A stretch of DNA of 64,000 nt from IMG/VR virus record IMGVR_UViG_3300045988_124250. One strand, 5' to 3'. Numbering within the stretch: the stretch's first letter is position 1; each line of letters opens with the position of its first letter. Made by a program: the position numbers and the translations under genes. This document shows, in pieces, positions 1 to 64,000 of the stretch. The notes beneath the pieces were generated by a model that made no database searches, was not told the origin of the DNA, and saw only the letters and a program-made list of their open reading frames with translations. This DNA is from a virus.

Positions 1-322
1 ACCTTCACCAGGCATATTATGACAAATAGTTGAAGAGACGATCCCAGTTTCATTATACTCAGGATCGCCTCCCCATTCTAACAACAAGTCATAAATATTA
101 TCGGTAGTAAGTTTTTCCCGGATTTCTGACTTGTCGAATACAACCATTAGTCAACAATCACTTTCACGCATTTGCGTAGAAGATTTAGATTGGTGTTTAC
201 ATATTCAATCAGAATATCCTGTGGATTCTTGCGAGGTCCTTTATAACTTTTAATCAGCTCTGTAGCCTGACGCTTAGACATCTTATACTCAATTTGACCA
301 GCTTTTTCCATAATTATTCTCC

Positions 323-1855
323 TTAAAACGCACTTTCTTCTTCAAAATTAATTTTTATATCATCTATTGGGACTAACTCATACCCATAAGTAGTGCAAAA
401 CATAGGTTTAACTCTACAAGTTCCTAAATCTGCTTTACACCACAAATATACACCTTTATATCGGCCACGTCTATTTTTATAAACTGACATTTTTATTGTT
501 GGAATTTCAAAAATATTTGTTTGTAAAATATCATTTAATGCTACTAAATCATCATCTTTTACAGGCAATAAAATTGAACCATAGTCAATTTTATCCGCAA
601 TAGCTTTTGCTCCTCGTAAGAGATTTTGATCTGGTGTTTCTGCATCTTGATAAGCACCATTTAACTGAGTGGCTGACATAATAAATACACCATATTGATT
701 ACAAATATCTTTTAATTTAGTTGATAGCATAAATAAGATATTATCTTCACGCAATTTAACGCCACCACTACGACGAGTAATTTCTTCAAGAATTTTTAAA
801 CTTGTATGAATATAATCATGAAATACATATTTTACTTCATGGTCGCGAATACCTTTTTTAATTTCATTCTCAACATCCATTAGAGAAAAATCAGGTAATT
901 CACGAATATAAATGGGACTAGACGCAATAATTTTACCAGCTTCTAATACTCGTTCTTCTTCATCACCAACATATAATTTTGTATTCAAAATATGCTCTTC
1001 ATTAACATTTGATAAAAATGCTAACATCATAGTTTGAATTTCACTAATTTCTTGTTCTGTGGTAATATATAAAACTGGTTCACAAATACCATTTCTAATC
1101 CAACCAAATGTTTCATCATAAATTTTATTACACCCAAGATTACAAGCATCGGCAATCATTGAACGAGTTTTTCCAATGCCAGAAGGGGCTGAGCGCAAAT
1201 AAAATTTCTTTAATCTGGCCCCACGGGTCACTGTATTGACAAGTGATCCGTATAATGGTGAACCAATTTCTGGATGTTCTTTTAGAGAATCAAGCAAATC
1301 AAAAATTCCATGACCGGCTTGTACCGCAACACCCTCTACATTATTTACATATTCATATTTGATTGTTTCAATTCTATCATCAACTAATTTTGCAATATTT
1401 TCTAATGAGGAATTGTCTAAATTATCTTCTTGTAATTGTTTTTTCTCAACATCTAAAATATTATCAGGGTCATAAATAAATGATACATCTACACCATAAT
1501 TATCATATGCTCTTAATAGAGACATTTTCTTTAAACGACTATAATAATAATCAAATGATAATGGTTTTGCTGTATCCGCAATATTTAGAAGCCACTCTTC
1601 ACCTTTATTAGCTTTATATATACCTTGATATTTTGGACGAGAAGATAAAAAATCATTAATATTTTCTAAGGTAACTTTTTCAGCACCTAATTCATGAATT
1701 TTATAAATAGCTCCAAATACAACTCTATGAAATTGATCTGGGAAATCTTCTTCGGTTATTGAATATTTATCAGTAAAATCAAGTAATTGCGGAGAATTAT
1801 AAACACATCCAATTACTTGCATTATTGCAGTTGGGTCGACATATTTAGATGCCAT
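323..1855 (-). CDS. dnaB: replicative DNA helicase (DnaB family)
   Basis: 510-aa ORF; Walker A RSAPSGIGKTRS with DnaB-like N-terminal region; AAGGAG RBS upstream. Confidence 0.7.
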   Translation of the reverse strand: MASKYVDPTAIMQVIGCVYNSPQLLDFTDKYSITEEDFPDQFHRVVFGAIYKIHELGAEKVTLENINDFLSSRPKYQGIYKANKGEEWLLNIADTAKPLSFDYYYSRLKKMSLLRAYDNYGVDVSFIYDPDNILDVEKKQLQEDNLDNSSLENIAKLVDDRIETIKYEYVNNVEGVAVQAGHGIFDLLDSLKEHPEIGSPLYGSLVNTVTRGARLKKFYLRSAPSGIGKTRSMIADACNLGCNKIYDETFGWIRNGICEPVLYITTEQEISEIQTMMLAFLSNVNEEHILNTKLYVGDEEERVLEAGKIIASSPIYIRELPDFSLMDVENEIKKGIRDHEVKYVFHDYIHTSLKILEEITRRSGGVKLREDNILFMLSTKLKDICNQYGVFIMSATQLNGAYQDAETPDQNLLRGAKAIADKIDYGSILLPVKDDDLVALNDILQTNIFEIPTIKMSVYKNRRGRYKGVYLWCKADLGTCRVKPMFCTTYGYELVPIDDIKINFEEESAF

Positions 1856-2204
1856 TCACACCCTCCTCTTCATCTAAAAATGAAAATAAGTTTTTCTTAT
1901 ATGGTTTCCGTTGAGGTATTGGTATAGTTATTTCTTGAACTTGTGGAACATATAATGAGATATTTTTATCTTCATTTCTTTGTTTTATCATCCATAAGTT
2001 ATAGTAATAATTATAGGCATCTTTATATATCCAAGGAATTATACCAACTCCGCCATTTGCTTTTTCGACGGAATTCCCTTTAATTTCATAAAAATATATA
2101 AGGGCTTTTAACATACCTGAATAAGTATAATTATATTCTTCTACATATTGGTTTAATTGTTTCCGCACACGAGGATTAATATAATTTTCTCCAAGTAGTT
2201 TCAT
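1845..2204 (-). CDS. hypothetical protein; the frame continues upstream through an in-frame TAG (2351-2353) into a CxxC...HPQC zinc-finger-like N-terminus (to ~2385)
   Basis: 119-aa ORF overlapping helicase start; upstream same-frame codons KCFYCG-TAG-IFDRDKFPYVQVGTRRYAHPQCAG. Confidence 0.4.
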   Translation of the reverse strand: MKLLGENYINPRVRKQLNQYVEEYNYTYSGMLKALIYFYEIKGNSVEKANGGVGIIPWIYKDAYNYYYNLWMIKQRNEDKNISLYVPQVQEITIPIPQRKPYKKNLFSFLDEEEGVNGI

Positions 2205-2410
2205 TATATATTGCTCTAATTCAGTCTTATCTTTATCCTCTTCTGGAGGCTTAATAATTTCTTTTTCAGAAGTGACACCAGCACATTGAGGATGAGCATA
2301 ACGACGAGTTCCAACTTGAACATATGGAAATTTATCTCTATCGAAAATCTATCCACAATAAAAACATTTTACTTTATGCGCTATTTTCAATCACTCCTTT
2401 CAATACTTCC

Positions 2411-2449
2411 TTATATAAATATTATATCATAAAAATGGATAAAAATCAA
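2411..2449 (-). promoter_or_regulatory. promoter repeat: TTGATT-N17-TGATATAAT (extended -10)
   Basis: forward aatcaa(2444-2449)...attata(2421-2426). Confidence 0.55.
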
Positions 2450-2487
2450 CCTGAGGCGGATTTGAGTTCGCCTCAGGTCAATATTAA

Positions 2488-62520: not shown

Positions 62521-63258
62521 CCATCTAAAATGCTTAAATATTATTCCAATCCTCCTCTCCAATTTTTTTTATATCTCCACTTCTACGAGGCAAATTATAA
62601 CTATCACACCATTTTCGCACAGCATTATCAGAAACATTATATTTTCTTGCTATTTGAGTAAAAGGTTTATTGCGAATTAAATTTTTTAATTCTTCTCTAG
62701 AAGGTCTTTCTGCCATTCGTAAAAGTTTATTATTACAAGGAATACATCGGAGAGAGCCTGGATTAATTTCGCATCCACAGTCTTTACAATAAAATTTTTC
62801 TTTATGAGAAGAATTATATAGTTCTTCATCAGATAACTGTTTATATTGTGAAAACATATTTGTTATTAAATAAGTTTCATCATCAAAAGAAATTGTTTTT
62901 TGTAAAGATGTTTCATCAACAGGCACTAAATACACTTTATCATTCCATACAGTCGCAAAATAATCAATTTCATCATTTGTATATTTATGCTTACTTCCTA
63001 AAGAACTTTTCACATTTTGTGTGGTACAAGGAAATGTAAATGATGATTTTGAATTACTTATAGATTTTTTAATTTGAATTTTTAATAATTCTGTCCCTGT
63101 ATCAACTAATAAATCATATTTTGAAGAATTATAAGTTGGAACAGAAATATTAAATCCATACCGCAAAAATTCAATTTGAACTTTTAATTCAATTATCTAA
63201 CCTTTAATTAAATTTTCACTTAACACGTTATTTTATGGAATAATATTAAGTTTTCAAA
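62521..63258 (-). mobile_element. ~738-nt intron in anticodon loop of trnW(CCA) carrying PD-(D/E)xK endonuclease-like ORF
   Basis: exon halves pair perfectly (AGGUCAU/AUGGCCU, GCGGU/ACCGC); insert ends with G. Confidence 0.5.
62534..63166 (-). CDS. PD-(D/E)xK-type endonuclease-like protein with Zn-ribbon and C-terminal HTH, encoded inside trnW intron
   Basis: DLLVDTGTELLKIQIK (D...ExK), CKDCGCE...CIPCNN, ARKYNVSDNAVRKW. Confidence 0.45.
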   Translation of the reverse strand: MRYGFNISVPTYNSSKYDLLVDTGTELLKIQIKKSISNSKSSFTFPCTTQNVKSSLGSKHKYTNDEIDYFATVWNDKVYLVPVDETSLQKTISFDDETYLITNMFSQYKQLSDEELYNSSHKEKFYCKDCGCEINPGSLRCIPCNNKLLRMAERPSREELKNLIRNKPFTQIARKYNVSDNAVRKWCDSYNLPRRSGDIKKIGEEDWNNI

Positions 63259-63294
63259 TGGAGACCGCTATGCTAGCCGCTACACCAATGACCT
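63259..63294 (-). tRNA. trnW: tRNA-Trp(CCA) 5' exon
   Basis: AGGUCAU-UG-GUGUAGCGGCUAGCAUA-GCGGU-CUCCA; anticodon arm matches E. coli tRNA-Trp CCGGU-CUCCAAA-ACCGG. Confidence 0.5.
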
Positions 63295-63311
63295 ATATAT
63301 GTTAAGGAAGA

Positions 63312-63368
63312 AATTTTTTCCCTTCCTTAACTTTCTATATATATTATATTATATTTTTTAAAAAAAAT
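63312..63368 (-). promoter_or_regulatory. promoter repeat copy directly upstream of trnW 5' exon
   Basis: same consensus; transcript would begin ~15 nt before tRNA position 1. Confidence 0.5.
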
Positions 63369-63374
63369 CAAATT

Positions 63375-64000
63375 TTAGATTTTTTCTAAAGTATTTACTA
63401 AATCAGTCCACTATATTGCTATATCATTAAGTTGAGTAAAATATTTGTCAATAAAATTATTAAACTCTCTATTAGACATAGTAAAAAATAATTTATGAAT
63501 TAATGGAAACCACTCTGAAATATTAAATAATTTTATAAATCCACTAAAATGAATTATTGACATATTTTTTTCAAAAAAAATGCTATTTTTTTGTCGTAAA
63601 AAATAATCATTTAATATTTCTTCGTCATTAATTTTATTTATCTATGATTGACTTAAAAAATGTTTAAAATTATTTAAATCAATTTGATTACTACAAATAA
63701 AAATAATTCCTTCCATTTGATTAATTAATTTATTAAAAAATCCTAAAAATTGACAATTTATAGACATTTTATCAAATAAATAATCAATATTTTCAGTTAA
63801 AATAGTATCTGCATCTAACCAACAAATTTTTTCATACTTATCTAAATAATCAATTATTTTAAATTTATTGAATGTTTTTTGAAAACGTCCAGAAGCTGCC
63901 TAAGAAAATAATTTTTGCTTAATAGAAATATAATGGATATTATTTTCTTTTAATACTTTCTAAGAAACTAAATCATTTTCATCTACCATCACAATATATT
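63375..64000 (-). CDS. family 8 glycosyltransferase (partial, runs off window; in-frame TAGs)
   Basis: WLDADTI DxD motif; N-terminus beyond 64000. Confidence 0.45.

Follow-up and report, generated by a model that had tools for sequence, protein, structure and literature searches.

What does TAG mean in a viral genome where it repeatedly interrupts otherwise continuous genes? The question arises from IMG/VR record IMGVR_UViG_3300045988_124250, of which a stretch of 64,000 nucleotides, referred to here as the window, was analysed; its guanine-cytosine (GC) content is 34.5%, and nearly every long frame or gene lies on the minus strand. A first-pass annotation of the window had proposed that TAG is a sense codon, as in the genetic code 15 recoding of gut phages. 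Our results favor this proposal: TAG is most likely read as glutamine (Gln), aided by a phage-encoded tRNA, a reading to which a probability of about 0.92 is assigned on sequence evidence.

TAG inside reading frames

In a curated minus-strand set, excluding five spurious automatic open reading frames (ORFs) that overlap tRNA genes, in-frame TAG was found in 23 of 51 ORFs of at least 100 codons, with 56 TAGs in total, in agreement with the earlier estimate of at least 20 genes broken by TAG alone. The extended frames had been said to end in TAA or TGA, and the 76 TAG-sense ORFs terminate with TAA (62) or TGA (14) and with no other codon; the second exon of gyrB, for example, closes with GAT GTG TGA at 11820-11822. 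Where a TAG lies close to an ORF end (about 10 codons or fewer), as a few do (12173-12175, for example), it is indistinguishable from a stop. Re-calling genes, which the annotation had suggested as a check, gave with the same greedy caller a coding density of 64.2% for table 11; reading TAG as a sense codon lifted it to 79.0%, and doing the same for TGA brought it to 66.0%. Treating TAA as sense also raised the density, solely through antisense ORFs, with strand coherence dropping from 85% to 58%.

A read-through test free of any gene model was applied to minus-strand table-11 ORFs of at least 100 aa, measuring the same-frame open stretch past the terminating stop. The median stretch was 59 codons after TAG (n=12), 9 after TAA (n=39), and 5 after TGA (n=11), with a Mann-Whitney p of 3.9e-5. 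The next base was T for 23% of in-frame TAGs, 21% of sense codons, and 56% of real stops (Fisher p=1.6e-4). The base context after TAG is therefore sense-like and unlike that of terminators, supporting TAG as a sense codon.

Pfam scans were run on genes translated with X at every TAG. Single domain alignments crossed TAGs in AAA_24, three GIY-YIG proteins, PG_binding_1, Amidase_2, PhoH, two Radical_SAM proteins, N6_Mtase, Peptidase_C1, and Glyco_transf_8, so that frames and homology continue past TAG inside conserved genes in both the Pfam scans and the read-through test. Five TAGs quoted in the annotation (6188-6190, 18857-18859, 9446-9448, 3088-3090, and 45505-45507) are all minus-strand TAG triplets with exactly the peptide contexts given.

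The individual genes (Table 1) illustrate how these triplets sit within conserved sequence. The Pfam match of PhoH (residues 218-411) covers all three of its TAGs, and that at 18404-18406 occupies the invariant Q of the GDxxQxD motif, where related loci carry CAA (22), CAG (8), or TAG (8). The two halves of gyrA share one frame, as proposed, the N- and C-terminal domains being matched together with TAG 9446-9448 between them; another TAG stands at codon 3, and gyrA column 587 holds K or Q in relatives, 44 of 45 loci having a sense codon there. In the coiled-coil GIY-YIG protein, whose earlier TAG count was exact, TAG 6188-6190 falls between the GIY and YIG motifs, the Pfam GIY-YIG domain (residues 234-314) spans X244, and relatives carry CAA (24), GGN (17), or TAG (5) in that column. 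The GIY-YIG domain of the homing endonuclease in the gyrB insertion (residues 2-88) spans X19 and X74, with CAA in 29 and TAG in 14 relatives at X19. AAA_24 (residues 22-194) spans X137, where relatives show CAG or CAA (27) and CGT (16). The endolysin domains span X235 and X316, and relatives have either Q or TAG at endolysin columns 282 and 316. Radical_SAM covers X47 and X112 of the peptide-maturase-like enzyme, and Peptidase_C1 (residues 42-223) covers X90 and X144 of the cysteine protease. The placement of TAGs inside the functional domains of PhoH, the endolysin, the peptidase, and both radical SAM enzymes was thus upheld.

Three details needed correction. The radical SAM enzyme of the tRNA island is TAG-rich, as claimed, with nine TAGs instead of about ten; its Gln-type codons comprise TAG 9, CAA 7, and CAG 0, and one close relative keeps eight of the nine TAGs, with CAA at the ninth. 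Of two reported methyltransferases, one is sustained, its N6_Mtase domain (residues 4-251) spanning X29, where close relatives have TAG (2) and CAA (2); the second, at 43298-43858, had no Pfam match at E<=0.001. In the HNH gene the TAG at 45505-45507 does precede CPNCH as described, whereas the HNH match itself is weak (E=0.005) and stops two residues before it; column 128 holds CAA in four relatives, TAG in two, and GAA, CAT, and CGC in one each.

Glutamine, the suppressor tRNA, and competing readings of TAG

The inserted residue was approached through 127 related IMG/VR loci, 47 anchored on GyrA and 80 on the DUF2828 gene, which form a large family with 58-99% identity and many contigs of 150-200 kb. 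Codons facing the window TAGs were CAA (147), TAG (136), GAA (68), AAA (65), and CAG (64), and in the opposite direction the window codons facing TAGs of relatives were TAG (136), CAA (126), and GAA (65). CAA/CAG is the most frequent non-TAG codon facing TAG in both directions. Among relatives at least 95% identical, the facing codons were TAG (70), CAG (9), TGG (3), and CAA (2), making exchange between TAG and CAG the chief change. In protein homologs, Q occupies PhoH column 371, within the GDxxQxD motif, in 13 of 13 sequences and column 47 of the maturase-like radical SAM enzyme in all 13 closest sequences, and it is the most frequent residue at two further TAG columns.

A Codetta-style likelihood, with substitution profiles taken from the same codon-level alignments, was highest for Q over all cells (-2105, compared with -2573 for K and -2665 for E) and with columns equally weighted (-83.3 vs -98.5 for K). 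The homolog alignment at TAG columns that the annotation had called for thus returned Gln as the best-fitting residue. Within high-scoring segment pairs at least 90% identical, TAG was kept in 176 of 212 cells. Nine differing cells with TGG were set aside, belonging to an ORF that overlaps the suppressor tRNA gene, and 16 of the remaining 27 were CAG or CAA. This retention, together with replacement mostly by CAG or CAA, argues that the TAGs are neither sequencing errors nor decay.

A tRNA with anticodon CUA is encoded in the window, forming a canonical cloverleaf with a normal D-loop (GG) and, in the Rfam alignment, the T-loop/T-arm GGUUCGAAUCC. It belongs to class I, has an encoded CCA end, a U1.U72 mismatch, G73, G10, and U35, and is present in the closest relatives as 98.6% identical copies; 31 distinct CUA tRNAs were counted across the window and related loci. 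Glutaminyl-tRNA synthetase (GlnRS) reads U35, G73, a weak 1:72 pair, and G10. Identity elements were tabulated since overall tRNA similarity is uninformative. All 23 CCA-ended CUA tRNAs of the family combine G73 with a weak or mismatched 1:72 pair (U:U, U:A, A:U, or A:C), and G73 is likewise found in 27 of 27 tRNA-Gln. The 2-3/70-71 pairs CC/GG, GC/GC, or GG/CC are common to suppressors and tRNA-Gln. In this family, position 73 is A in the tRNAs for Lys, Glu, Tyr, and Leu, and a long arm is present in those for Ser, Leu, and Tyr. By these positions, the suppressor carries the acceptor-end identity features of tRNA-Gln, and Gln as the inserted residue is suggested by the alignments and the tRNA features together.

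The proposed mechanism follows the same lines. UAG would be translated as Gln, leaving UAA and UGA as the sole terminators, and the phage's own amber suppressor with its Gln-type acceptor end would decode it, presumably after charging by the Gln-charging machinery of the host and in probable competition with release factor 1 at UAG.

Several observations count against this reading. PhoH column 369 is mostly Lys (K 29/37), as is column 112 of the maturase-like radical SAM enzyme, and the TAG at 38147-38149 lies at a conserved Trp/Phe column that Gln fails to explain. Besides tRNA-Gln, tRNA-Trp alone shares the G73 and weak 1:72 pair of the suppressor. Overall similarity places the suppressor no nearer tRNA-Gln than other isoacceptors, the nearest non-suppressor tRNAs being Arg (72%), Thr (69%), and Gln (68%). 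No capsid, portal, terminase, release factor 2 (RF2), or GlnRS gene turned up in the window or in the 10 kb flanking each of its ends.

Reassignment of TAG to another residue (Lys, Glu, or Trp), or its ambiguous decoding, could draw on the Lys and Trp columns and on the tRNA-Trp likeness, and Lys is the second-best fit in the likelihood test. It is nevertheless very unlikely. The log-likelihood margin of Gln over Lys is 468 units when all cells are used and 15 with equal columns; PhoH column 371, endolysin column 316, and column 19 of the gyrB-insertion endonuclease are invariant-Q columns, and no catalytic-motif column is invariant W or K. Near-identical relatives exchange TAG chiefly with CAG, the family's 22 Lys tRNAs without exception carry A73 where the suppressor has G73, and the suppressor's CC/GG pairs at 2-3/70-71 occur in tRNA-Gln and in none of five tRNA-Trp.

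The triplet at 38147-38149 (X397, in the "YFWNKYY" block of the maturase-like radical SAM enzyme) is the sole outlier among TAG columns. Homologs have W (52), F (10), or A (2), with no instance of Q; among relatives the codon is TGG, TAT, or TGT, TAG being absent, and the alignment resumes beyond this column. TGG to TAG is one transition, so a recent substitution (Trp to Gln, if read) or a base error is the simplest account and may apply here. The outlier leaves the overall Gln inference unshifted.

That the TAGs are true stops, marking pseudogenes, split genes, or sequencing and assembly errors, is scarcely credible. Frames are indeed broken under table 11, and the TAG at 38147-38149, unique to this genome at a Trp codon, could be a recent mutation or an error. 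The interruptions, however, are TAG only and never TAA or TGA, conservation and Pfam domains run across and past them, and independent assemblies drawn from several samples retain TAG in matching columns; in relatives it alternates with CAA or CAG. Moreover, relatives with a sense codon at the TAG column have gyrA, PhoH, and the endolysin each as one gene, and a matching suppressor tRNA is encoded. Pyrrolysine (Pyl) can be dismissed: the ARAGORN label "tRNA-Pyl" is given to any CUA-anticodon tRNA, whereas this tRNA is a full-length canonical match with the normal D- and T-loop features that tRNA-Pyl lacks, Pfam scans of the window genes turned up no Pyl-synthesis or PylRS domains, and the TAGs occur in 23 unrelated genes, in columns where homologs carry Gln.

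The suppressor lies within an island of tRNA genes, between which small, mostly TAG-rich genes are scattered. Neither tRNA-Gln (UUG/CUG) nor tRNA-Trp was found among the ARAGORN and Rfam tRNAs of the window. A degenerate tRNA-like element with a broken acceptor stem (Rfam 35.8 bits, missed by ARAGORN) was considered as the missing tRNA-Gln and rejected, its anticodon being CAU. Eight relatives (L061, L064, L073, L083, L098, L099, L131, and L134) carry CUA tRNAs of 89-95 nt, which set a class II-like long variable arm on a Gln-like acceptor end. Decoding of TAG as Ser in these loci was rejected, Gln fitting best (column-weighted -234.5 vs -245.4 for Lys) and Ser falling outside the top five.

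Table 1. Coordinates of the genes, tRNAs, and regions of the window discussed in the text.
Feature	Coordinates	Strand	Description
AAA_24 (RecA-fold) ATPase	2488..3498	minus	336 codons, 1 TAG at 3088-3090
Coiled-coil + GIY-YIG protein	5951..6919	minus	322 codons, 7 TAGs
gyrA	8780..11206	minus	808 codons; Pfam DNA_topoisoIV + DNA_gyraseA_C
74-aa gene	11603-11827		real gene
gyrB exon 2	~11820-12005	minus	
GIY-YIG homing endonuclease in gyrB insertion	12149..12838	minus	229 codons, 3 TAGs
gyrB exon 1	13030..14739	minus	569 codons, 0 TAG
Class I/II aminotransferase	14820-15878	minus	
Endolysin (CHAP, PG_binding_1, Amidase_2)	16353..18191	minus	612 codons, 3 TAGs
PIN-PhoH	18263..19516	minus	417 codons, 3 TAGs (18857-18859, 18410-18412, 18404-18406)
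SPFH/flotillin gene	22082-23470	minus	GC-rich, TAG-free
Nearly TAG-free block	22082..32533	minus	3 TAGs, all in small ORFs
Apparent RNA-repair module	23546-32533	minus	almost TAG-free
Serine hydroxymethyltransferase (SHMT)	27477-28667	minus	0 TAG
MVP-like protein (MVP_shoulder, Vault_3)	33807..36296	minus	829 codons, 0 TAG
Radical SAM, peptide-maturase-like	38024..39337	minus	437 codons, 3 TAGs
DUF2828/DUF7788 protein (phrog_850 "RNA-binding protein")	39757..41283	minus	508 codons, 0 TAG, GC 0.47
Eco57I/N6_Mtase-type DNA methyltransferase	41412..42590	minus	392 codons, 1 TAG
tRNA island	43964..61820	minus	26 ARAGORN tRNAs + one degenerate CAU tRNA
HTH + HNH endonuclease	45442..45888	minus	148 codons, 3 TAGs; weak HNH_3 match
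Amber suppressor tRNA, anticodon CUA	49016..49089	minus	ARAGORN; Rfam RF00005 full-length, 52.5 bits
Radical SAM in tRNA island	52386..53651	minus	421 codons, 9 TAGs, GC 0.18
Papain-family (Peptidase_C1) cysteine protease	53668..54483	minus	3 TAGs in stop-to-stop frame
Sodium:dicarboxylate symporter	54758-55933	minus	
Degenerate tRNA-like element	58438-58507	minus	anticodon CAU
ArfA-like ORF	60091-60243	minus	50 aa, between two tRNAs

Uneven use of TAG among genes

TAG accounts for about 12% of Gln-type codons overall and is distributed very unevenly. Relative to gene length it is over-dispersed (chi-square 198, expected 75; p<=2e-4), with 14 zero-TAG genes among the 23 of at least 250 codons where 3.7 would be expected; relative to Gln codons it is over-dispersed as well (p=2e-4), including among low-GC genes alone (p=0.005). 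The absence of TAG from the SHMT, MVP-like, and DNA ligase genes, remarked on earlier, was borne out. Across relatives, gyrB shows 0 TAG in 26,164 aligned codons (46 loci), the DUF2828 gene 0 in 42,506 (84 loci), the SPFH gene 0 in 8,872, and the MVP-like gene 1 in 27,134 (34 loci), gyrB exon 1 being the clearest case of this conserved class. Outside the window, DNA polymerase III alpha has 0 TAG in 1132 codons. Relatives of gyrA and the ligase carry about 0.4 TAG per 1000 codons, compared with 2.1 for PhoH, 3.7 for the endolysin, 8.4 for the maturase-like radical SAM gene, and 12-18 for GIY-YIG genes, among them orthologs of the gyrB-insertion endonuclease (16.3) and of the coiled-coil GIY-YIG protein (18.4). 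Particular genes avoid TAG, and they do so throughout the family.

The nearly TAG-free block holds the SPFH/flotillin gene, phosphoesterases, an AAA_33 kinase, an RNA ligase, SHMT, and an RlaP-like nucleotidyltransferase. Within it, two metallophosphoesterases, the AAA_33 polynucleotide-kinase-like protein, the RNA ligase, and the nucleotidyltransferase form an apparent RNA-repair module. The heaviest TAG use seen in the genome lies just beyond position 64000, upstream of the window, in an AT-rich cluster (L142:215-9041; GC 0.18-0.24) of unknown, radical SAM, and glycosyltransferase genes, with 5-12 TAGs each and TAG about as frequent as CAA.

Two accounts of this pattern were weighed. In the first, proposed in the first-pass annotation as early versus late expression relative to the suppressor, gyrB, DNA polymerase III alpha, dnaB, ligase, the MVP-like and DUF2828 genes, and the SPFH/RNA-repair block would be translatable under the standard code, while the homing endonucleases, endolysin, PhoH, and very AT-rich accessory genes would need suppression for a full-length product. 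Full-length synthesis from the latter would then await accumulation of the suppressor tRNA. If the host uses the standard code, a conserved set of genes free of TAG would be expected, and the timing idea is compatible with the data and with the published model, down to the many recoded codons of the endonuclease lying within an early gene. That TAG-containing proteins are expressed later or more conditionally than the TAG-free set comes, in our estimate, near an even chance without quite reaching it.

Weighing against the timing account, TAG density drops with gene GC content (rho=-0.57, p=1e-5). The TAG share of Gln-type codons is 17.6% in genes with GC<0.36 and 2.2% in those with GC>=0.36; GC-rich genes favor CAG (127 vs 55 CAA), and AT-rich genes are nearly without it. 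TAG load thus tracks GC content, so a compositional or mobile-gene explanation may hold as well as timing. According to this second account, uneven TAG use would reflect mutation pressure and gene origin instead of a timing device. AT-biased C to T change would turn CAG into TAG in weakly constrained, AT-rich accessory or mobile genes (homing endonucleases and cassettes swapped among recoded phages), while GC-rich, constrained, or highly expressed core genes would purge TAG, suppression being inefficient. The GC correlation, the shift in TAG share with its accompanying CAG preference, and the identity of the TAG-richest genes, namely the homing endonucleases and the cluster upstream of the window, all speak for it. 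The heterogeneity that persists within low-GC genes, however, speaks against it, as do low-GC replication genes wholly without TAG (gyrB and DNA polymerase III alpha) and the TAGs of the endolysin, a classic late gene, which the timing model predicts. We regard mutation pressure and gene origin as a tentative explanation with an appreciable minority chance; it and timing are not mutually exclusive.

Within the tRNA island, a short basic ORF gave a borderline match to ArfA (Pfam E=2e-5, 24.3 bits, just below the 25.5-bit cutoff). All six of its PDB matches are ArfA, aligned over KGKGxYxRKxKH, and it is conserved at 94-100% in the closest relatives only. This putative ArfA-like protein might, by its sequence, be tied to the consequences of amber suppression. 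A speculative combination, which we consider improbable, would join a TAG-free, GC-rich, CAG-preferring "pre-switch" regulon (the MVP-like, DUF2828/DUF7788, and SPFH/flotillin proteins, RNA-repair enzymes, and core replisome, made under the standard code of the host), a suppressor-gated remainder, and the ArfA-like protein of the island as an accessory dedicated to the code switch. It would bring RF2 to ribosomes stranded at mRNA 3' ends when UAG stops of the host are read through across its genome, so that the supply of ribosomes lasts during amber suppression.

Source genome, neighboring features, and known recoded phages

The window matches ENA contig ERZ28619677 scaffold_15 (201,374 bp) at 100% over 33 kb and 99.8% over a further 12 kb. 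Public gene calls on that contig run through TAG (PhoH 417 aa, endolysin 612 aa, GyrA 808 aa), so an automated pipeline had already treated it as recoded. The window is part of a genome of about 200 kb, probably that of a tailed bacteriophage known from metagenomes alone. Phage-type features include the 127 related loci on IMG/VR viral contigs, the endolysin, PhoH, homing endonucleases, the array of 27 tRNAs, and PHROG matches. Megablast of positions 8000-20000 (12 kb) against deposited phages gave no match, and a close deposited relative was not found at protein level, the best INPHARED GyrA being 45% identical.

Several neighboring features deserve description. The gyrB gene is interrupted within its conserved KGLGEM motif, exon 1 ending "...ELGRMKG" before TAA and exon 2 resuming "GEMDVHEMEETV..." and ending, as annotated, in GTG TGA. 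The insertion of about 1.0 kb holding the GIY-YIG endonuclease is intron-like; for a group I or II intron, no Rfam model matched even at E<=1, and in the close relative L140 GyrB is unbroken (631 aa). Orthologs of PhoH and the maturase-like radical SAM enzyme (P0001-P0029; contigs up to about 185 kb) reach 700-1270 aa owing to inteins with Intein_splicing, LAGLIDADG_3, and Hom_end domains, none of which is present in the window copies (417 and 437 aa).

The MVP-like gene (GC 0.45; CAG 25 vs CAA 4) has homologs at 41% identity in the huge phages LR756500-3. A 2023 preprint (10.1101/2023.11.10.566534) described MVPs from phages and leaves the genetic code unmentioned. Three metabolic genes unusual for a phage, encoding the aminotransferase, SHMT, and the symporter, occur only in the 4-5 closest relatives. 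A joined SHMT/aminotransferase/SDF query, which is poor for host inference, matched mostly long SHMT fusion proteins at about 54% from many phyla. A formate/nitrite transporter gene is called beside the radical SAM gene in the public record.

For practical purposes, table 11 fragments about one in three of the larger genes, so the window must be called with TAG as Gln. The family adds one more large group to code-15 phages, with many IMG/VR contigs of 150-200 kb, and supplies a fairly clean data set on genes that refuse TAG (0 in 26,000-42,000 codons for gyrB and DUF2828), usable for weighing the early-standard/late-alternative code model against the AT-drift/mobile-gene model. An RF2-recruiting rescue factor in an amber-suppressing phage would be interesting if true. 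Understanding of the recoding mechanism is unchanged.

Comparison with known systems places the window phage among established cases. Escherichia coli supE is a tRNA-Gln whose anticodon CUG has become CUA, setting CUA on a Gln-type body. The window tRNA resembles it in probable function, sharing class I, the CUA anticodon one base from CUG, U35, G73, a weak 1:72 pair, and G10. It differs in being phage-encoded, in having U1.U72 instead of U1-A72, and in an overall sequence no closer to tRNA-Gln than to other tRNAs.

Among phages, phAss-1 (PMC10607447), as described in the parts of that report compared, is likewise a gut virome phage with TAG in many ORFs and a suppressor tRNA, in a genome of 136 kb compared with about 200 kb here. 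For crAss-like phages, an unrelated lineage, confirmation of code 15 came from metaproteomics (Peters et al. 2022, PMC9523058); TAG as Gln was predicted there from the same kind of evidence as used here, and in the compared sources that study is the sole direct peptide-level proof, the window phage being known from sequence.

The closest parallel is with the gut phages of Borges et al. (10.1101/2021.08.26.457843), for which the compared parts of the paper describe TAG to Gln recoding, suppressor tRNAs (in 35-40% of such phages), and partial, gene-class-dependent recoding in clades of about 150-560 kb, where early genes remain compatible with the standard code and an intron endonuclease is recoded preferentially. 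Shared features are in-frame TAG aligned with Gln, a phage tRNA(CUA), partial recoding with variable replication genes, a recoded lysis gene, and an intron homing endonuclease with many recoded stop codons. The genome size here is compatible with the larger clades Jade, Sapphire, and Agate. Those clades rest on terminase phylogeny, whereas the window is without a terminase; a further difference is that no RF2 or aminoacyl-tRNA synthetase gene was seen in the window or its flanks of up to 10 kb. The code-15-like reading of the window therefore matches published gut phages as far as these sources go, and the window phage adds one more case to a phenomenon already published. Its own additions are small: the family-wide counts of TAG avoidance, the link of that avoidance to GC-rich, CAG-preferring genes, which was not met in the compared parts of Borges et al., and the ArfA-like ORF.

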